Shown here in pieces: positions 9,667 through 47,748 of a stretch of DNA of 64,000 nucleotides (positions within the stretch are counted from its first letter, which is position 1; every line of letters begins with the position of its first letter). The notes beneath the pieces were generated by a model, which had not been told where the DNA came from, searched no databases, and saw only the letters and a list, made by a program, of their open reading frames with translations. The stretch comes from Escherichia coli. Lineage in GTDB: Bacteria > Pseudomonadota > Gammaproteobacteria > Enterobacterales > Enterobacteriaceae. The stretch lies in assembly GCF_001677475.2 (NCBI RefSeq), contig NZ_CP015229.1; one strand, given 5' to 3'. Made by a program: the position numbers and the translations under genes.

Positions 9667-10625
9667 AACAACCGCTCCAGTGCATCAACTTCCACGACAG
9701 GCAGCGTGCTACCCGGCCAGCGACGTACCTGCTGCGCCTGCATCAGATCCAGCGTGTCCAGCCCTGGAATGGTGTCCGGCGTTAACCAGGCGGCAATCCG
9801 CGCCAGTTGCGTTAAGCCTAAGCTCGATTCAATGGAAGAACTGATCACCGCCGTCAGCCCCACCGCGTGCGCCGCCTGTACCTGCTCGCGTACTTTTTCC
9901 AGACTGCCCGTGAGCGTGGGTTTGATAACTACCGCGCGCACGCCCTCTTCAGCCACAAAGGCAAAATCCGGCTCGCGCAGGCTTTCATCCCAGGCAATGG
10001 CAATGCCGGTTTCACGGGCAAACGCTCGCGAATCATCGCGGGTTTTGCACGGCTCTTCGAGAAACGCGATGCGGTCGCGATAATCCGGGTTAACGTATTT
10101 GGCAAACTGCTGACCTTTCAGCGGTGTCCAGGCGCGATTTGCGTCAAGACGCAAATGCAGATCCGGAATTGCCTCCAGCAACAGATTCACCACCATGCCG
10201 TCGCGCACCGCTTCGTACAATCCCACTTTGACCTTCGCCACTTTCTCGCCAGGCATATCGGCAAGTTTGAGGATCAGATCGTCCGGATCGCCATTACACA
10301 GTGGTGCCGTACGGTAATTGGCCGCCTGCGGGAGCGTATCTGCCAGCTCCGCCAATGCACAGCTTACGCCAAAGGCGACGGAAGGCAGCTGCGGTAATTC
10401 GCAATCGCCTGCCAGCCAGTTATTTACCCAGGCAAGCAGCACACTTTGCGCCTCTTCCCAGGTTTCCTGACTGAAGCCCGGCAGTGGGGAGATCTCCCCC
10501 CACCCTTCGCGCTCGCCTTCACGCAGGCAAACATACAGCCCGTCGCGGGTTTTTAACCGCCTGTCGCGCAGAACCACCCCCGCGTCCATGGGGATCTGCC
10601 AGCGGTATACCTGCGCGCTACGCAT
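9663..10625 (-). CDS. menC: o-succinylbenzoate synthase MenC
   Basis: 320-aa enolase-superfamily ORF; its stop overlaps the menE start by 4 nt. Confidence 0.93.
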
Positions 10626-11482
10626 TACGGATTCCGTTTAAATTTGCTGAAATCAGGCTGACGTTTCTGGTTGAAGGCGTTGCGACCTTCCTGACCTTCT
10701 TCCGTCATGTAGAACAGCATGGTGGCGTTGCCCGCCAGCTCCTGCAGACCTGCCTGACCGTCACAGTCGGCGTTCAGTGCAGCTTTCAGGCAGCGCAGCG
10801 CCATCGGGCTGTTTTGCAGCATTTCGCGGCACCAACGGACGGTTTCTTTTTCCAGATCCGCCAGCGGTACCACGGTGTTCACAAGGCCCATATCCAGCGC
10901 CTGTTTTGCGTCGTACTGACGGCACAGGAACCAGATTTCACGCGCTTTTTTCTGTCCGACGATGCGAGCCATGTAGGAAGCGCCCCAGCCGCCGTCGAAG
11001 GAACCGACTTTCGGGCCAGTCTGACCGAAGATGGCATTATCTGCCGCGATAGTCAGGTCGCACATCATGTGCAGAACGTGACCGCCGCCGATGGAGTAGC
11101 CAGCCACCATCGCGACAACCGGTTTCGGACAGGTACGGATCTGACGCTGGAAGTCCAGCACGTTCAGGTGATGTACGCCGGAATCATCTTTATAGCCGCC
11201 GTAATCACCACGCACTTTCTGGTCACCACCGGAGCAGAACGCTTTATCGCCTGCGCCAGTCAGAATGATCACCCCGACATTATCGTCATAACGCGCATCT
11301 GCCAGTGCCTGGATCATCTCTTTTACCGTCAGAGGACGGAAGGCATTGCGCACCTGCGGACGATTAATGGTGATTTTTGCGATACCGTCGGTGGATTTTT
11401 CATAACGAATGTCCTCAAAGCCTTCGGAGCAGTCGTGCCATTCAACCGGTGCGTAAAGCATTGCTTCATCAGGATAAATCAT
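10625..11482 (-). CDS. menB: 1,4-dihydroxy-2-naphthoyl-CoA synthase MenB
   Basis: 285-aa crotonase-fold ORF ([48 protein letters not shown]...) matching MenB. Confidence 0.95.
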
Positions 11483-11496
11483 ATTGTGTCCTTTAG

Positions 11497-12255
11497 TCAG
11501 AAACGCAAGATCTGCGCCAGACTTGCGATTACGCCAGCGGGATTTTCCCGGTGCGCGTTATGTCCGGCGCGAGGAATGACATGGCAGTCGGCAGCCAGTT
11601 CCGTCGCCAGGGCGCGGAATTTGCTGTCACGTTCACCACATAAATAATAAAACGCAAATGTGCGGGCGCTAAGGTTAGCACGTAAATCAGGCTGAACGGC
11701 GAGAGAAGTCGCCTCCAGCATGGCGGCAAGGGTTGCGCCATTATTGTTGCTGCGCAGCGCCACCAGCTCCCGGCGTTGATCGTCATTGAGTGAGGCAAAA
11801 ACAGGCTGTTGATACCAGTCGGCAAATACCGCCGTTAACGGTTCTGTGAGAAAACGCTGCACCCATTGGCGATCGGAACGCTGACGTTCCGCACGTTGTT
11901 CAGCATTTTGCAGCCCCGGATGCCCGCCTTCGACAACAACCCCACAAAGCCCCGCCAGCCCCTGGCAAGCCGCCATCATCGCCACCCGTCCGCCAAGCGA
12001 GTACCCCACCAGCCAGAAGTCAAGGATGTTGTAACTAACCAAGGTTTTACGCAGTAAGTCGGTGACATCATCAAATCCATCGACGCTAATCGCCGCCGAA
12101 CCACCGTGACCTGGGAGATCAACATACAACCGTGAGTAGTCGGCAAACACCTCGCCCACTTCTTGCCATTCATGGCAATCGCCGGAAAAACCGTGCAAAA
12201 ACACCAGCCAGGGTAAACCTGGTTTACCGTGTTTTGCCTGCGCGTGCAGGATCAT
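11497..12255 (-). CDS. menH: 2-succinyl-6-hydroxy-2,4-cyclohexadiene-1-carboxylate synthase MenH
   Basis: 252-aa alpha/beta hydrolase (GYSLGGR motif) between menD and menB. Confidence 0.92.
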
Positions 12256-23857: not shown

Positions 23858-25699
23858 TCAACGCAGTACCATCAACAGTGCCAGCACCACGACCGCACCG
23901 ATGCTCATGGATGCCACATACCAGCGCAGATAACCGTTCTCGCTTAACAGCAGACCTTTACCTGCAAAGCGGGAAAGGACAGCCGGGATGTTCATCATTG
24001 AGTTCAGCGGATCGCGTTTCAGCAACCAGGCAATACCCAGGAACGACTTGACGAACACTTTGTCATACAGCCAGTCAAATCCCCAGGCGTTGTACCACCA
24101 GGTGCCCAGCAGACGGCCCGGCGCACTGTTGGCGATGGAAGTCACCAGAGTACGTTTACCCAGCCACAGCCAGGCTGCCAGCAGAATGCCGACCACCGCG
24201 ACCACGCCAGAGGTAATTTCCAGGGTCAACATGCTGCCGTGCGCCAGCTCCGTCGTTTGCGGGAGCACGCCCTGCAGCGGCGGTACAATCAGTGCGCCAA
24301 CGAAGGTGGAAAGGATCAGCAGCACAATCAGCGGCAGGCTGTGAGTTATCCCTTTCACGGCGTGAGCGTGAATTTGTTCTTTTCCGTGGAAGACGATGAA
24401 AATCATACGGAAGGTGTAAAGCGAGGTCATAAACGCACCGACCAGACCTGCCACCATCAGATTGATATGACCATTCGCCATCGCACCCGCGAGGATCTCA
24501 TCCTTACTGAAGAAGCCCGCAGTGACCAGCGGCAGTGCCGACAGTGCTGCGCCACCCACCAGGAAGCAGAGATAAACCAGCGGAATAGATTTACGCAGAC
24601 CGCCCATCTTGAAGATGTTCTGTTCGTGATGGCAGGCCAGAATGACGGAACCGGATGCCAGGAACAGCAGCGCTTTAAAGAACGCGTGAGTCATCAAGTG
24701 GAAAATCGCCGCATCCCATGCCTGCACGCCAAGCGCGAGGAACATGTAGCCAATCTGGCTCATGGTAGAGTAAGCGAGAACACGTTTGATATCAGTCTGT
24801 ACCAGCGCGGCAAAACCGGCCAGCAGCAGCGTAACCGCCCCGACAATGCCCACCAGATGCAGAACTTCCGGGGTCATCAGGAACAGGCCGTGGGTACGGG
24901 CGATCAGGTAGACACCTGCGGTTACCATCGTTGCGGCGTGGATCAGCGCGGAGACAGGCGTCGGGCCCGCCATCGCGTCGGCAAGCCATGTCTGCAACGG
25001 CAACTGCGCAGATTTACCGACCGCACCGCCCAGCAGCATCAGCGTCGCCCACATCAGCATGTTATTGCCGTCAGCAAAGTGCGCTGGTGCCAGTTCCACC
25101 ATTTCGCGGAAGTTCAGGGTGCCCAGTTCGTTGTAAAGAATGAACAGCGCGAAAGCGAGGAAGACGTCACCCACACGGGTCACGACGAACGCTTTCATTG
25201 CCGCTGCGCCATTCTTCGGATCGGTGTAATAGAAACCGATCAGCAGATAGGAGCACAGGCCCACGCCTTCCCAGCCGAGGTACATCAACAGCAGGTTATC
25301 GGCAAGCACCAGAACTACCATGCTGGCGATGAACAGGTTGGTGTAAGCGAAGAAGCGAGAGTAGCCCTCTTCACCGCGCATATACCAGGAGGCGTACATG
25401 TGAATAAGGAAACCCACACCAGTGACCACCGAGAGCATGGTCAGCGACAGGCCGTCCAGCACCAGGTTAAAACCGATGTTAAAGTCGCCTACCGACATCC
25501 ACGTCCACAGCGGCTGGCTATATGCCTGCTCACCGTTAGCGAAGAAGTCAACGCCGATAAAGGCGGTTACCAGCGCCGCCAGGCCCACAGAGCCAACGCC
25601 GACGATCGCTGAGACGTTTTCAGACCAGCGCCCACGGGAGAACGCCAGCAGGACGAAGCCAATCAATGGCAAAATAATGGTTAAGGCAAGCATGTTCAT
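23858..25699 (-). CDS. nuoL: NADH:quinone oxidoreductase subunit L
   Basis: 613-aa antiporter-like membrane subunit. Confidence 0.95.
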
Positions 25700-27117: not shown

Positions 27118-28095
27118 TTATTGCGCCTGCCAGAGAATGACAGCCGCCGTTACCAGCAAGTTGATCAGCGTCAGCGGCAGGCAGATTTTCCAGCCGAAGG
27201 ACATTACCTGGTCATAACGCGGACGCGGTAACGACGCACGAATCAAAATGAACATCATCATAAAGAACGCGGTTTTCAGCGCGAACCAGATGAATGGCGG
27301 TAACAACGGGCCTTGCCAGCCACCGAAGAACAGCGTCACCATCAGTGCAGAGATGGTCACAATCCCGATGTACTCACCCACGAAGAACAGACCGAACTTC
27401 ATGCCGGAATATTCAATGTGGTAACCATCCGCCAGTTCCTGCTCGGCTTCCGGCTGGTCAAACGGGTGACGGTGACACACCGCCACGCCCGCGATGGCAA
27501 AGGTAATAAAACCAAAGAATTGCGGGATGACGTTCCACACATGCGCCTGGCTGTTGACGATGTCGGTCATGTTGAATGAACCGGCCTGCGCCACCACGCC
27601 CATCAGGGAAAGCCCGAGGAACACTTCGTAGCTCAGAGTCTGCGCAGAAGCACGCATCGCCCCCAGCAACGAGTATTTGTTGTTACTTGACCAGCCCGCA
27701 AACAGCACCGCGTAGACCGCCAGACCGGCCATCATCAGGAAGAACAAAATCCCGATGTTCAGGTCGGCAACCACCCAACCTGGGCTGACTGGCACAATCG
27801 CAAAGGCCAGCAGCAGCGAGGTAAAGGCAATCATCGGTGCCAGGGTAAAGATGACGCGATCCGAGAATTTCGGGATCCAGTCTTCTTTGAAGAACATCTT
27901 GATCATGTCCGCGACCAGCTGGAGCGAACCGCCCCAGCCAACACGGTTAGGTCCGTAACGGTTCTGGAACAGACCCAGCAGGCGACGTTCGCCAAAGCTC
28001 ATGAATGCCCCACAGGTGACAACCACCAGCAGGATCACCACCGCTTTGAGGATGGTCAGCAGGATCTCAATCAGTTCCGGTGATATCCAACTCAT
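27118..28095 (-). CDS. nuoH: NADH:quinone oxidoreductase subunit H
   Basis: 325-aa membrane subunit. Confidence 0.95.
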
Positions 28096-30818
28096 TGTTG
28101 TGCCTCCTTGAGATCCTCAAGATGCGCGCCAGCCAGCACCGGAGCAATGCCGGACATACCCATCGGCAAGCCAACCTGCCCTGCCGTCAGCCCTTCGGCG
28201 ATTTCAACCGGCAGCGTGACCGTGTTGCCATCGTAGCTAAAGGAGACACGAGTGCCCGCGTTCACACCCAACTTCGCGGCATCCGCCGGGTTAAGTTTGA
28301 TGTACGGCTGTGGCATACGGCTCTGGAAAACCGGAGCACGCTGTGACAATTCATCGCTGCCAAACAGGTGGTAGTACGGCGCGATACGCCATTTCCCTGC
28401 CTGCGGCTGGAAGCGTGCCGGTACGCTGGTGAAGTAATCCAGACCATTTTCGCTGGTTTCAAACAGACGCACACCTGGATCGCCAAAGCGCAGTTTGCCG
28501 CCCACTTCGTCCTGGAATTTGTTCCACGCCTGCGGGGAGTTCCAGCCCGGTGCCCAGGCAAACGGCACTTGCGAACGGTGCGCGGTCGGCTGGTTGTTAC
28601 CTTCCATCGAGAAGGTGAACATGGTGTCAATATCCTGCGGCTGACGCGGCTCATGAACGCTGATATTGGCGCGCATGGCGGTACGACCGCTGTAACGGTG
28701 CGGTTCACGGGCCAATTTCTGCCCACGAATACGGAATGTCGCATCCGGCGCAGCATCTTTGATACCCGCCAGTTCGGGGATTTTCGCCACAACAGCGTCA
28801 ATCACATGGTCGAGCTGCGTCCAGTCCACTTCACGGCTCAGCAGGGTGCTGTGCAGCGAGTGCAGCCAGCGCCAGCTTTCCAGCATGACAGTTTTGCTGT
28901 CGTAATAAGCCGGATCGTAAACCTGGAAGAAACGTTGGGCGCGGCCTTCGTTGTTGATCACCGTACCGTCGCTTTCAGCAAAGCTGGCAGCAGAAAGTAC
29001 CAGATGGGCGTTTTCCATAATCGCTGTGCGTTGATGGTCAACCACCATCACCAGCGGCGCTTTAGCCAGCGCAGCATTCACGCGGGTAGCGGAAGCGTGA
29101 CGATGCAGATCGTTTTCCAGCACCACCACCGCGTCGGCGCGTCCGGTTTCCAGTTCGGTCAACGCTTCTTCAAGCGAACCGCCCCCCATAATGCCCAGCC
29201 CCATGCTGTTTACAGAGCGAGCAATCATGGTGATACCAACGTCAGCGCCGCGACCTTTCAGGGCTTTTGCGACGTTAGCCGCAGCCTGAATCACTTCAGC
29301 GCTACCGGCGTTTGTCCCGGAGATAATCAACGGTTTCTTCGCACCTGCCAGTGCCTGCACGATGACATCGATTTTGCTTTGCAGCTCAGGTTCGATACCG
29401 TCAACCGCTGGTGCGGAGTTGTCCAGCGCATGAGCGATGGCAAAACCTAAACGCGCCTGATCTTCAACCGGTGCGCGGTAAGTCCACGCCGCGATATCAT
29501 CCAGACGGGTGTCATCAACGTTGGTAACAAACAGCGGATGCTTCGCACGTTGGCCGATGTTGAGGATTGCCGCAATTTGCCAGTCAGCCACTTTCTGTGC
29601 TGCCGCCATTTCGCGCGCTTTACCTTTCACCGCCTGACGCACCGCCAGTGCGACACGAGCGCCAGTCTGAGTAACGTCTTCGCCCAGCACCAGTACCGCA
29701 TCGTAAGATTCGATTTCGCGCAGAGCCGGAGTATAAATGCCGCCTTCACGCAGCACTTTTAGTGCCAGTTGCAGACGTTCCTGCTCACCGTGAGCGATAC
29801 CGGTATAGAAGTTTTCTTCGCCCACCAGCTCACGCAGCGCAAAGTTGCTTTCCACGCTGGCACGCGGAGAACCAATACCGATCACTTTCTTCGACTGACG
29901 CAGAATATCTGCCGCGCCCTGCATTGCCTGTTCGGCGTTGAGGGTAATGAAATCATCGCCACGACGCTGTACTGGCTGACGCGGACGATCTTTCAGGTTG
30001 ACGTAGCCGTAACCGAAACGACCACGGTCGCAGAGGAAGTAGTGGTTTACTGTACCGTTGTAACGGTTTTCGATTCGACGCAGTTCGCCATAACGCTCGC
30101 CGGGGCTGATGTTACAGCCGATGGAACATTGCTGGCAGATGCTCGGCGCAAACTGCATATCCCATTTACGGTTGTAACGCTCGGAGTGCGTTTTGTCGGT
30201 GAATACGCCGGTCGGGCAAATTTCGACCAGGTTACCGGAAAATTCGCTTTCCAGCGTGCCGTCTTCCGGGCGACCGAAGTAGACGTTGTCGTGCGCACCG
30301 TAAACGCCCAGATCTGTACCGTCAGCGTAATCTTTGTAGTAACGCACGCAGCGGTAGCAGGCGATGCAGCGGTTCATTTCGTGAGAGATGAACGGCCCCA
30401 AATCCTGATTACGGTGGGTACGTTTGGTGAAACGGTAGCGACGGAAGCTGTGTCCGGTCATCACGGTCATATCCTGAAGATGACAGTTACCGCCTTCTTC
30501 ACATACCGGACAATCGTGCGGGTGGTTGGTCATTAACCACTCGACCACACTTTCACGGAACTGTTTCGCTTCTTCGTCGTCAATGGAAATAAAGGTGCCA
30601 TCGGAAGCCGGTGTCATACAGGACATCACCAGGCGACCACGCGTGTCTTCCGCGTTTTGGTATTGCTTCACCGCACACTGGCGGCAAGCACCGACGCTTC
30701 CCAGCGCCGGATGCCAGCAAAAGTAAGGAATATCAAGGCCCAGAGACAGACAAGCTTCCAGCAAGTTGTCCGCTCCGTTGACCTCGTATTCTTTGCCGTC
30801 TACATGAATTGTAGCCAT
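28092..30818 (-). CDS. nuoG: NADH:quinone oxidoreductase subunit G
   Basis: Track ORF is 910 aa from ATG 30824; the known protein begins [15 protein letters not shown]... (908 aa), and ATG 30818 is preceded by GGAAG. Multiple Fe-S cysteine clusters. Confidence 0.93.
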
Positions 30819-30870
30819 TAGCATGCTTCCAGTTTTCTCAGTCAGAGACTGAGCGTTAATCGAAATTCGG

Positions 30871-32707: not shown

Positions 32708-34498
32708 TTAGCGGTCCACATCTGACATAACAAAATCGATACTGCCCAGATAAACAATCAGGTCAGACACCAGGCTGCCGCGGATCGCCGCCGGAATTTG
32801 CTGCAAATGCGCATAACTCGGCGTACGGATACGGGTGCGATAACTCATGGTGCTACCGTCGCTGGTCAGGTAGTAACTGTTGATCCCCTTGGTCGCCTCA
32901 ATCATCTGGAAAGATTCATTGGCTGGCATCACCGGCCCCCACGACACTTGCAGGAAGTGGGTGATCAGGGTTTCGATATGTTGCAGCGTGCGCTCTTTCG
33001 GCGGCGGCGTAGTCAGCGGATGATCCGCTTTGAACGGGCCTTCCGGCATGTTGTTGAGGCACTGCTCAAGAATGCGCAGACTCTGGCGCAGCTCTTCCAC
33101 TTTCAGCATTACGCGGGTGTAGCAGTCAGAAACACCACCACCCACCGGGATTTCAAAGTCGAAGTTTTCATAGCCAGAATACGGACGCGCCTTACGCACG
33201 TCGAAGTCGATCCCGGTGGCTCGCAGGCCCGCGCCAGTGGTGCCCCACTCCAGTGCCTCTTTCGCGCCATAGGCGGCAACGCCCTGGGAACGACCTTTCA
33301 GAATGGTATTTTGCAGCGCCGCTTTCTCGTAAGACGCCAGACGTTTCGGCATCCAGTCGAGGAACTCACGCAGCAGGCGATCCCAGCCGCGCGGCAGGTC
33401 GTGCGCTACGCCGCCAATACGGAACCACGCCGGGTGCATACGAAAACCCGTGATTGCTTCCACCAGATCGTAAATTTTCTGACGATCGGTAAAGGCGAAG
33501 AACACTGGCGTCATCGCGCCGACGTCCTGAATAAAGGTGGAGATATACAGCAGATGGCTGTTGATGCGGAACAGCTCAGAAAGCATTACGCGAATGACGT
33601 TAACGCGATCCGGCACGGTGATCCCGGCCAGTTTCTCTACAGCCAGCACGTAAGGCATTTCGTTAACGCAGCCGCCGAGGTATTCGATACGGTCGGTATA
33701 CGGAATGTAGCTATGCCAGGACTGGCGCTCGCCCATTTTCTCCGCACCACGGTGGTGGTAGCCGATGTCTGGTACGCAGTCGACAATCTCTTCGCCATCG
33801 AGCTGCAAAACGATACGGAAAGCACCGTGCGCCGACGGGTGGTTCGGACCGAGGTTGAGGAACATGAAGTCCTCGTTTTCGGTGCCGCGCTTCATCCCCC
33901 ACTCTTCCGGTTTGAAGGTCAGGGCTTCCATTTCCAGATCCTGTTTGGCTTTGGTCAGCTCAAACGGCGAGAATTCGGTAGCGCGCGCCGGGTAATCTTT
34001 ACGCAGCGGATGACCTTTCCAGGTTTGCGGCATCATGATGCGGCGCAAATTAGGATGACCGTCGAAAGTAATGCCAAACAGATCCCAGGTTTCACGCTCA
34101 TACCAGTTAGCGTTCGGGAACAGTTTGGTGAAGGTCGGTACGTGCAGGTCGTTTTCTGCCAGCGCCACCTTCAGCATGATGTCGCGGTTACGATCGATAG
34201 AAATCAGATGGTAGAAAACGGAAAAATCCGCGGCAGGTAACCCTTCGCGGTGTGTGCGCAGACGTTCGTCCATGCCGTGTAAGTCAAACAGCATGACGTA
34301 AGGTTTCGGCAGTTTCTTTAAGAAATCGCCAACTTCCAGTAATTGTTCACGCTTGATCCACACAACGGGAACCCCGGTGCGAGTCGCCTGAACAGTAAAG
34401 GCATCCGGCCCAAAACGGTTGCGCAGTTCGCCAATCACCGGATCATCAAGATGATCGCGGGTCTGCCAGGCGGGTTCTTGCGCGGTTAAGTCGGTCAT
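32708..34498 (-). CDS. nuoC: NADH:quinone oxidoreductase fused subunit C/D
   Basis: Track ORF is 600 aa from ATG 34510; the known product begins [30 protein letters not shown]... and ATG 34498 has a GGTGA Shine-Dalgarno, so 34498 is preferred (34510 possible). Confidence 0.92.
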
Positions 34499-34603
34499 AT
34501 TGTTCACCATTGCAAATGGTCCGTGGTGACTGTCGGCGCAGTAAGCTTCGCGAAATAGATTTAGGAATAAGCGAAGAAAAATCCCTTTGCCGACAGGCGC
34601 AAA

Positions 34604-44137: not shown

Positions 44138-45340
44138 ATGTCGAGTAAGTTAGTACTGGTTCTGAACTGCGGTAGTTCTTCACTGAAATTTGCCATCATC
44201 GATGCAGTAAATGGTGAAGAGTACCTTTCTGGTTTAGCCGAATGTTTCCACCTGCCCGAAGCACGTATCAAATGGAAAATGGACGGCAATAAACAGGAAG
44301 CGGCTTTAGGTGCAGGCGCCGCTCACAGCGAAGCGCTCAACTTTATCGTTAATACTATTCTGGCACAAAAACCAGAACTGTCTGCGCAGCTGACTGCTAT
44401 CGGTCACCGTATCGTACACGGCGGCGAAAAGTATACCAGCTCCGTAGTGATCGATGAGTCTGTTATTCAGGGTATCAAAGATGCAGCTTCTTTTGCACCG
44501 CTGCACAACCCGGCTCACCTGATCGGTATCGAAGAAGCTCTGAAATCTTTCCCACAGCTGAAAGACAAAAACGTTGCTGTATTTGACACCGCGTTCCACC
44601 AGACTATGCCGGAAGAGTCTTACCTCTACGCCCTGCCGTACAACCTGTACAAAGAGCACGGCATCCGTCGTTACGGCGCGCACGGCACCAGCCACTTCTA
44701 TGTAACCCAGGAAGCGGCAAAAATGCTGAACAAACCGGTAGAAGAACTGAACATCATCACCTGCCACCTGGGCAACGGTGGTTCCGTTTCTGCTATCCGC
44801 AACGGTAAATGCGTTGACACCTCTATGGGCCTGACCCCGCTGGAAGGTCTGGTCATGGGTACCCGTTCTGGTGATATCGATCCGGCGATCATCTTCCACC
44901 TGCACGACACCCTGGGCATGAGCGTTGACGCAATCAACAAACTGCTGACCAAAGAGTCTGGCCTGCTGGGTCTGACCGAAGTGACCAGCGACTGCCGCTA
45001 TGTTGAAGACAACTACGCGACGAAAGAAGACGCGAAGCGCGCAATGGACGTTTACTGCCACCGCCTGGCGAAATACATCGGTGCCTACACTGCGCTGATG
45101 GATGGTCGTCTGGACGCTGTTGTATTCACCGGTGGTATCGGTGAAAATGCCGCGATGGTTCGTGAACTGTCTCTGGGCAAACTGGGCGTGCTGGGCTTTG
45201 AAGTTGATCATGAACGCAACCTGGCTGCACGTTTCGGCAAATCTGGTTTCATCAACAAAGAAGGTACCCGTCCTGCGGTGGTTATCCCAACCAACGAAGA
45301 ACTGGTTATCGCGCAAGACGCGAGCCGCCTGACTGCCTGA
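44138..45340 (+). CDS. ackA: Acetate kinase
   Basis: 400-aa [53 protein letters not shown]... matching AckA. Confidence 0.96.
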
Positions 45341-45414
45341 TTTCACACCGCCAGCTCAGCTGGCGGTGCTGTTTTGTAACCCGCCAAATCGGCGGTAACG
45401 AAAGAGGATAAACC

Positions 45415-47559
45415 GTGTCCCGTATTATTATGCTGATCCCTACCGGAACCAGCGTCGGTCTGACCAGCGTCAGCCTTGGCGTGATCCGTGCAATGGAACG
45501 CAAAGGCGTTCGTCTGAGCGTTTTCAAACCTATCGCTCAGCCGCGTACCGGTGGCGATGCGCCCGATCAGACTACGACTATCGTGCGTGCGAACTCTTCC
45601 ACCACGACGGCCGCTGAACCGCTGAAAATGAGCTACGTTGAAGGTCTGCTTTCCAGCAATCAGAAAGATGTGCTGATGGAAGAGATCGTCGCAAACTACC
45701 ACGCTAACACCAAAGACGCTGAAGTCGTTCTGGTTGAAGGTCTGGTCCCGACACGTAAGCACCAGTTTGCCCAGTCTCTGAACTACGAAATCGCTAAAAC
45801 GCTGAATGCGGAAATCGTCTTCGTTATGTCTCAGGGCACTGACACCCCGGAACAGCTGAAAGAGCGTATCGAACTGACCCGCAACAGCTTCGGCGGTGCC
45901 AAAAACACCAACATCACCGGCGTTATCGTTAACAAACTGAATGCACCGGTTGATGAACAGGGTCGTACTCGCCCGGATCTGTCCGAGATTTTCGACGACT
46001 CTTCCAAAGCTAAAGTAAACAATGTTGATCCGGCGAAGCTGCAAGAATCCAGCCCGCTGCCGGTTCTCGGCGCTGTGCCGTGGAGCTTTGACCTGATCGC
46101 GACTCGTGCGATCGATATGGCTCGCCACCTGAATGCGACCATCATCAACGAAGGCGACATCAATACTCGCCGCGTTAAATCCGTCACTTTCTGCGCACGC
46201 AGCATTCCGCACATGCTGGAGCACTTCCGTGCCGGTTCTCTGCTGGTGACTTCCGCAGACCGCCCTGACGTGCTGGTTGCCGCTTGCCTGGCTGCCATGA
46301 ACGGCGTAGAAATCGCTGCCCTGCTGCTGACTGGCGGCTACGAAATGGACGCGCGCATTTCTAAACTGTGCGAACGTGCTTTCGCTACCGGCCTGCCGGT
46401 ATTTATGGTGAACACCAATACCTGGCAGACTTCTCTGAGCCTGCAGAGCTTCAACCTGGAAGTTCCGGTTGACGATCACGAGCGTATCGAGAAAGTTCAG
46501 GAATACGTTGCTAACTACATCAACGCTGACTGGATCGATTCTCTGACTGCCACTTCTGAGCGCAGCCGTCGTCTGTCTCCGCCAGCGTTCCGTTATCAGC
46601 TGACTGAACTTGCGCGCAAAGCGGGCAAACGTATTGTTCTGCCGGAAGGTGACGAACCGCGTACCGTTAAAGCAGCCGCTATCTGTGCTGAACGTGGTAT
46701 CGCAACTTGCGTACTGCTGGGTAATCCGGCAGAGATCAACCGTGTTGCAGCGTCTCAGGGTGTAGAACTGGGTGCAGGCATTGAAATCGTTGATCCAGAA
46801 GTGGTTCGCGAAAGCTATGTTGGTCGTCTGGTCGAACTGCGTAAGAACAAAGGCATGACCGAAACCGTTGCCCGCGAACAGCTGGAAGATAACGTGGTTC
46901 TCGGTACGCTGATGCTGGAACAGGACGAAGTTGATGGTCTGGTTTCCGGTGCTGTTCACACCACCGCAAACACCATCCGTCCGCCGCTGCAGCTGATCAA
47001 AACGGCTCCGGGCAGCTCCCTGGTATCTTCCGTGTTCTTCATGCTGCTGCCAGAACAGGTTTACGTTTACGGTGACTGTGCGATCAACCCGGATCCGACC
47101 GCAGAACAGCTGGCAGAAATCGCGATTCAGTCCGCTGATTCCGCTGCGGCCTTCGGTATCGAACCGCGCGTTGCTATGCTCTCCTACTCCACCGGGACTT
47201 CTGGTGCTGGTAGCGACGTAGAAAAAGTTCGCGAAGCAACTCGTCTGGCGCAGGAAAAACGTCCTGACCTGATGATCGACGGTCCGCTGCAGTACGACGC
47301 TGCGGTAATGGCTGACGTTGCGAAATCCAAAGCGCCGAACTCTCCGGTTGCAGGTCGCGCTACCGTGTTCATCTTCCCGGATCTGAACACCGGTAACACC
47401 ACCTACAAAGCGGTACAGCGTTCTGCCGACCTGATCTCCATCGGGCCGATGCTGCAGGGTATGCGCAAGCCGGTTAACGACCTGTCCCGTGGCGCACTGG
47501 TTGACGATATCGTCTACACCATCGCGCTGACTGCGATTCAGTCTGCACAGCAGCAGTAA
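45415..47559 (+). CDS. pta: Phosphate acetyltransferase
   Basis: 714-aa ORF (start read as GTG) [42 protein letters not shown]... matching Pta. Confidence 0.96.
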
Positions 47560-47599
47560 TCTCGTCATCATCCGCAGCTTTGCGCTGCGGATATCGGAA

Positions 47600-47628
47600 C
47601 CGGAAATAGTGACTATTTCCGGTTTTTT
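47600..47628 (+). terminator. Rho-independent terminator of the ackA-pta operon
   Basis: ccggaaatagtgactatttccgg followed by TTTTTT; a smaller hairpin (ccgcagc-tttgc-gctgcgg) lies just upstream at 47572..47590. Confidence 0.8.
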
Positions 47629-47748
47629 ATTCTCTTAATTTGCATTAATCCTTTCTGATTATCTTGCTTAACTGCGCTGCATCAATGAATTGCGCCATCT
47701 CACTTTGCATACTTACCACTTTGTTTTGTGCAAGGGAATATTTGCGCT

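Follow-up and report, generated by a model that had tools for sequence, protein, structure and literature searches.

Does the 742-codon open reading frame (ORF) that lies antisense to pta in Escherichia coli represent a gene, or is it only the shadow of the gene opposite? We addressed this question in a window of 64,000 nucleotides, by which we mean the whole stretch of DNA that was analysed, and took gene identities from the chromosome of E. coli strain ETEC1738, which is 99.7% identical and annotated in RefSeq. The gene order in the window is arnBCADTEF-pmrD-menECBHDF-elaBA-rbn-elaD-yfbLM-nuoN..A-lrhA-alaA-yfbR..V-ackA-pta-yfcC...purF-folC. Of 5,426 complete E. coli genomes, 5,425 contain a match to the ackA-pta-yfcC stretch, with an identity of up to 99.7%. 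Pta itself contains the Pfam domains PTA_PTB, AAA_26, and DRTGG, with a best E value of 2.7e-131 (PTA_PTB).

Antisense ORFs and their alignment with the sense genes

The anti-pta ORF occupies positions 45343..47571 of the minus strand, starts with ATG, and totals 2,229 nt. It covers the whole of pta (45415..47559, plus strand; 714 codons), extending 12 nt beyond the pta stop codon and 72 nt beyond the pta start. An earlier note on this DNA had reported this ORF together with five shorter ones, and the ORF list contains all six, with the lengths given there. Four of the shorter ORFs are on the plus strand: one of 480 codons at 32798..34240, opposite nuoCD (32708..34510, minus strand); one of 457 codons at 24239..25612, opposite nuoL (23858..25699, minus strand); one of 387 codons at 10484..11647, opposite menB (10625..11482, minus strand) and extending into the ends of menC and menH; and one of 360 codons at 28368..29450, opposite nuoG (28092..30818, minus strand). 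The fifth, of 346 codons, is on the minus strand at 44306..45346, opposite ackA (44138..45340, plus strand). Opposite nuoN and nuoG there are two further antisense ORFs, absent from the earlier note, of 329 and 255 aa, respectively.

Every listed antisense ORF is codon-aligned with its sense gene, a relation known in the literature as frame -1. This is read directly from the coordinates: the lowest coordinates of pta and of the anti-pta ORF are both 1 mod 3, and the phases match in all other listed pairs. In a codon-aligned frame, antisense and sense codons pair one to one as reverse complements, so that an antisense TAA, TAG, or TGA can occur only opposite a sense TTA (Leu), CTA (Leu), or TCA (Ser), here called stop-complement codons. 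Across the window, the aligned antisense frame contains 2.36 stops per 100 codons, whereas each of the four remaining alternative frames contains 3.7 to 5.3. In the remaining two antisense frames of pta, the longest open runs are 168 and 86 codons.

The antisense translations had been described in the earlier note as low-complexity and rich in Arg, His, and Gln. The compositional part of this description stands, with Arg, Gln, and Phe enriched about 2-fold and His enriched in most of the translations. The low complexity does not: the entropy of the anti-pta translation is 3.97 bits, compared with 4.06 bits for Pta, and low-entropy 12-mers account for 0.1% of it. Its composition is nevertheless skewed (Arg, Gln, Phe, Cys, and Asn about 2-fold up; Lys, Trp, Pro, and Met down), because it is a deterministic mirror of the codons that pta prefers, CTG becoming CAG, GAA becoming TTC, and CCG becoming CGG. 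Searches with the antisense translations gave zero matches at E <= 1 in Pfam, NCBIfam, and PDB. Rfam has no family in the anti-pta region; its sole match within the 64-kb window is the nuoG RNA cis-regulatory motif RF01748 at 30826-30868 (minus strand), in the nuoF-nuoG spacer, which scores 50.3 bits against a gathering score of 33.

Codon usage of pta and the probability of an open frame

By direct count, TTA, CTA, and TCA are entirely missing from the 65 Leu and 50 Ser codons of pta. Leu is encoded by CTG at 59 of the 65 positions, and Ser solely by TCT, TCC, and AGC. With no stop-complement codon in pta, the 742-codon ORF is inevitable and holds zero information beyond the codon usage of the sense gene. 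Also missing from pta are ATA, AGA, AGG, CGA, CGG, CAT, AGT, TCG, and TTG. Nine of the 12 missing rare codons are therefore irrelevant to antisense stops, indicating that the depletion in pta is a general avoidance of rare codons and not one specific to antisense stops.

The CAI of pta, calculated with the weights of Sharp and Li 1987, is 0.656, the second highest of the 60 window genes scored, after ackA (0.66). Among these genes, the frequency of stop-complement codons declines with rising CAI (Spearman -0.50). At the other end of the scale is elaD (17376-18599, plus strand), which has the second-lowest CAI in the window (0.197). This gene is an intact 407-codon ORF here and a frameshifted pseudogene in the ETEC1738 annotation. 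The GC content is 0.40 to 0.45 in the surrounding stretch (16001-20000), compared with about 0.52 elsewhere; the low GC and low CAI suggest horizontally acquired DNA.

The listed sense genes other than pta contain 0 to 6 stop-complement codons each, often within the first 60 to 90 codons. TTA and TCA codons are found at positions 5, 15, 33, and 57 of ackA, and the anti-ackA ORF terminates where these rare 5' codons start. Similarly, the stop-complement codons of nuoCD are at positions 8, 57, 64, 77, and 91 (5' part of the gene, window 34240-34510), and those of nuoL at positions 6 and 30 (5' part, window 25610-25699). menB, with a CAI of 0.58, has no TTA, CTA, or TCA. The clustering of these codons at the 5' ends of the sense genes sets the end points of the shadow ORFs, and it fits what is known of the 5' ends of genes, where rare, AT-rich codons are enriched.

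We compared the open anti-pta frame with several null models. A base-composition null with uniform codons gives it a probability of (61/64)^742 = 3e-16, and the window-average synonymous codon usage a probability of 5e-8. The probability is 0.039 with the high-expression usage of Sharp and Li and 0.066 with the pooled usage of pta orthologues. A gene-specific logistic null was fitted on the 59 window genes other than pta, with Leu and Ser left out of the CAI. It predicts about 5.0 stop-complement codons in pta, where 0 are observed; the nominal P of 0.006 loses significance once 60 tested genes and 2-fold overdispersion are allowed for. Despite this non-significance, the E. coli pta allele is at the low end for stop-complement codons. 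An alternative null, derived from the A-ending codons of other amino acid families, was rejected; it over-predicts badly (11 expected in pta) because highly expressed E. coli genes readily accept GCA and GTA. The anti-pta ORF is far from random sequence, yet it is unremarkable for a long, highly biased gene.

Two other genes had few stop-complement codons under the logistic model. nuoN (20634-22091) and nuoL (23858-25699) have CAI values of only about 0.40 to 0.45 and contain 3 to 4 stop-complement codons, compared with about 11 predicted. The nominal P values for this deficit are 0.004 for nuoN and 0.013 for nuoL, under a model that is 2-fold overdispersed.

Conservation of, and selection on, the antisense frame

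Species-representative genomes were scanned for pta, yielding 80 Enterobacteriaceae loci with 90 to 99% protein identity. Among the 79 that could be used, 14 orthologues (18%) have a fully open antisense frame and the others an interrupted one; the median number of interruptions is 2. In E. albertii, the frame is broken by a CTA at codon 327, and in E. whittamii by a TCA at codon 256 and a TTA at codon 527. At the low end of the CAI range (0.39 to 0.43), three orthologues have 19 to 22 antisense stops each. Across all species, the stops are spread over 72 columns of the alignment. Of the 15 sequences with an open frame (the window and the 14 orthologues), 9 have an interrupted nearest relative, indicating that openness has been repeatedly gained and lost and is not inherited by clade. 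In the pooled orthologues, TCA makes up 3.4% of Ser codons and CTA 0.7% of Leu codons, compared with 3.3% and 0.6% in the Sharp and Li high-expression set, and TCA is roughly as common as the control codon TCG. One pta gene, encoding a protein 93% identical to E. coli Pta, is on a 280-kb contig of an assembly labelled Chryseobacterium sp. 18061 (CACSKA010000009.1); the contig fits Enterobacteriaceae, and the assembly is probably contaminated or mislabelled.

Within E. coli, we compared the window with 11 other strains, which differ from it at 8 to 44 residues of the antisense translation and at 1 to 6 of Pta. A mid-ORF stop is present in one of these strains, and the last 4 residues of the ORF are lost in one. 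The latter case, an antisense stop in CS5L, was rejected as a disruption, as it removes just these last 4 residues and is located in the ackA-pta spacer. This 74-nt spacer contains a terminator-like hairpin right after the ackA stop codon (45346-45368, plus strand), with 10 pairs (8 G-C) and then a T-run.

Strain FHI_NMBU_11 has a synonymous CTA allele at pta codon 452 (46768..46770, plus strand), which is CTG in the window. This allele creates an antisense TAG and splits the anti-pta ORF into 267 and 474 aa. An allele-specific 61-mer search identified it in 14 of 5,371 E. coli genomes, the carriers being isolates of several serotypes from humans, pigs, cattle, sheep, and food. These natural strains argue that the anti-pta ORF is dispensable. 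Variation is also seen in the other antisense ORFs when the window is compared with ETEC1738. The anti-nuoCD and anti-nuoL ORFs have 20 and 21 antisense amino acid differences, respectively, with 0 on the sense side. The anti-nuoG ORF has 2 internal stops in ETEC1738, with 30 antisense and 2 sense amino acid differences, and the anti-nuoN ORF likewise has 2 internal stops there.

For the selection tests, 77 orthologues were compared with the window pta. The per-site difference is 0.042 at sense codon position 1, 0.027 at position 2, and 0.318 at position 3; substitutions thus concentrate at antisense codon position 1. The dN/dS of pta is 0.06 in the sense frame and 2.46 in a naive antisense calculation. 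The dS of pta (0.59) is not below that of ackA (0.52), indicating that synonymous sites are without extra constraint. The earlier note had expected the antisense frame to be unconstrained, and both the dN/dS and the conservation check bear this out directly, with an antisense value of about 2.5 and a frame that is broken in 65 of the 79 orthologues.

We further estimated dNN/dNS and dSN/dSS with our own partition in the style of OLGenie, using as a control the gene yfcC, whose antisense frame is closed (13 stops). For pta, dNN/dNS is 0.67 (0.43 to 1.01) and dSN/dSS is 2.6. The control yfcC has a dNN/dNS of 0.65 (0.43 to 1.02), and ackA has one of 0.76. Purifying selection on the anti-pta ORF, as might be read from its dNN/dNS of 0.60 to 0.67, was rejected since the closed-frame control is equal. 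The match between yfcC and pta indicates that a dNN/dNS below 1 is a generic bias of the codon-aligned frame and not a coding signal; it arises because changes at the sense second position are more harmful than those at the first. For the detection of overlapping genes, a dNN/dNS below 1 (about 0.65) in a codon-aligned frame is thus unreadable as purifying selection without a control.

Competing explanations and known parallels

We conclude, with a probability of about 95%, that the 742-codon ORF is a non-coding shadow of pta and a passive by-product of strong codon bias. Translational selection is an established cause of codon bias in E. coli, where it removes rare codons, and it is the likely remover of those missing from pta. 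As pta is highly expressed, such selection would have purged its rare codons; with no stop-complement codon left, the aligned antisense frame is open across the entire gene. The open frame then continues, plausibly by chance, through the 28 flanking codons outside pta ((61/64)^28, about 0.26). The identical mechanism very probably accounts for the shorter shadows opposite ackA, nuoCD, nuoL, nuoG, and menB, which end at the few rare codons of the sense genes. The anti-pta ORF most likely yields no protein. The earlier note had called these ORFs antisense shadows of highly expressed, codon-biased genes, and the frame relation, the CAI values, the broken orthologues and strains, and the dN/dS values all agree with that view.

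Could the ORF instead be a young overlapping gene, present only in the E. coli lineage? In that case, transcription entering pta in antisense from the pta-yfcC spacer would allow a 742-aa protein to be made, with the ATG at 47571 as its start codon, comparable with what has been claimed for pop (opposite ompA in EHEC) and olg1/olg2 (Pseudomonas). The window, the E. coli species representative, and most of the strains sampled do have the ORF intact, and the stop-complement codons of pta are nominally below the CAI prediction (P = 0.006). Besides the ATG start, there is one sigma-70-like site in the pta-yfcC spacer (47685..47658, minus strand; TTGATG, 16 nt, GATAAT), directed antisense into pta. 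However, this is the only promoter-like site on the minus strand, compared with a shuffle expectation of 1.5, and it is therefore probably due to chance. There is no Shine-Dalgarno sequence in the 15 nt before the ATG. A terminator-like hairpin of pta (47596..47626, plus strand) lies upstream of the ATG as read on the minus strand, and a second hairpin directly abuts it. The searches of Pfam, NCBIfam, and PDB returned nothing, and 64% of the Arg codons in the anti-pta ORF are rare ones. The CAI of the ORF in its own frame (0.30, compared with a window median of 0.32) was dropped as evidence, as it discriminates neither way. Further, a recent origin has to contend with interruptions of the frame in E. 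albertii and E. whittamii, both sister species, with a segregating synonymous allele that splits the ORF in E. coli from varied hosts and serotypes, with an antisense protein that changes about 10 times faster than Pta within the species, and with a purifying signal no greater than that of yfcC. The main text of a survey of E. coli overlapping genes does not name pta, and we found no paper linking pta to an antisense gene, protein claim, or family. A young gene is, on this evidence, very improbable. Active translation, with the E. coli lineage having recently begun to make a de novo 742-aa antisense protein from this ORF, is an even fainter prospect. If true, this would be the longest overlapping gene reported in a bacterium, and the slight shortfall of stop-complement codons beyond expectation (nominal P = 0.006) would reflect selection for openness at an early stage.

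Selection could also act against antisense stops without any coding function, for example by limiting the costs of spurious translation, and so keep the frame open with no functional product. Published genome-wide models give more long alternative-frame ORFs than codon usage alone predicts (PMC3454372), and the nominal deficits in pta, nuoL, and nuoN (P = 0.006, 0.013, and 0.004) point in the same direction, but these deficits are non-significant once multiple tests and the 2-fold overdispersion are taken into account. Such selection is also hard to reconcile with orthologue-pooled TCA and CTA at their high-expression frequencies, with TCA about as common as TCG, with the repeated gain and loss of the frame across the family, and with anti-nuoN and anti-nuoG ORFs that are already broken in another E. 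coli strain. We consider it highly unlikely. Pure chance, in which base composition would suffice to explain the long ORF, can be given next to no weight in view of the probabilities of 3e-16 and, with window-average usage, 5e-8; further, the excess of open sequence is confined to the codon-aligned frame.

A non-coding shadow of pta also has close precedents. Long frame -1 shadow ORFs opposite highly expressed bacterial genes have long been known (Merino et al. 1994 and Silke 1997, as cited in Mir et al. 2012, PMC3454372). They share with the anti-pta ORF the codon-aligned frame, the lack of stops through avoidance of TTA, CTA, and TCA in the sense gene, and a length that tracks sense codon bias, and they differ from it in nothing substantive. 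They also lack independent homologues, and Pfam, NCBIfam, and PDB gave none for the anti-pta ORF. The length of the anti-pta ORF simply follows from that of pta (714 codons) together with its strong bias. Similarly, long antiparallel ORFs have been found to be generally without negative selection (bioRxiv 10.1101/724807). The same study re-analysed an ORF of more than 1,800 bp antisense to dnaK, formerly listed in Pfam (PF10712) as an NAD-specific glutamate dehydrogenase, and showed it to be without negative selection and without clade structure. Like the anti-pta ORF, it is a very long, phylogenetically scattered frame -1 ORF that spans a conserved, highly expressed gene, and it is unselected while the sense gene is strongly constrained. 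The dnaK ORF entered databases and the literature as a putative enzyme, whereas we found no such claim or family for the anti-pta ORF.

The comparison with experimentally supported antisense genes is different. Both pop, of 603 bp opposite ompA in EHEC (PMC7103648), and olg1 and olg2 of Pseudomonas aeruginosa, of 957 and 1,536 nt (PMC8850804), are, like the anti-pta ORF, long ORFs embedded antisense in an annotated gene. In the abstracts of these papers, the case for pop and olg1/olg2 is built on translation seen by ribosome profiling and on regulation or phenotype, and for olg1/olg2 also on evidence of purifying selection. The anti-pta ORF shows neither purifying selection nor conservation.

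The anti-pta ORF is a real property of the sequence with an ordinary, already-known cause. Its value is that of a negative control, a worked example of a 2.2-kb stop-free frame without coding function. Length alone is insufficient to promote codon-aligned antisense ORFs of highly expressed genes to gene candidates.
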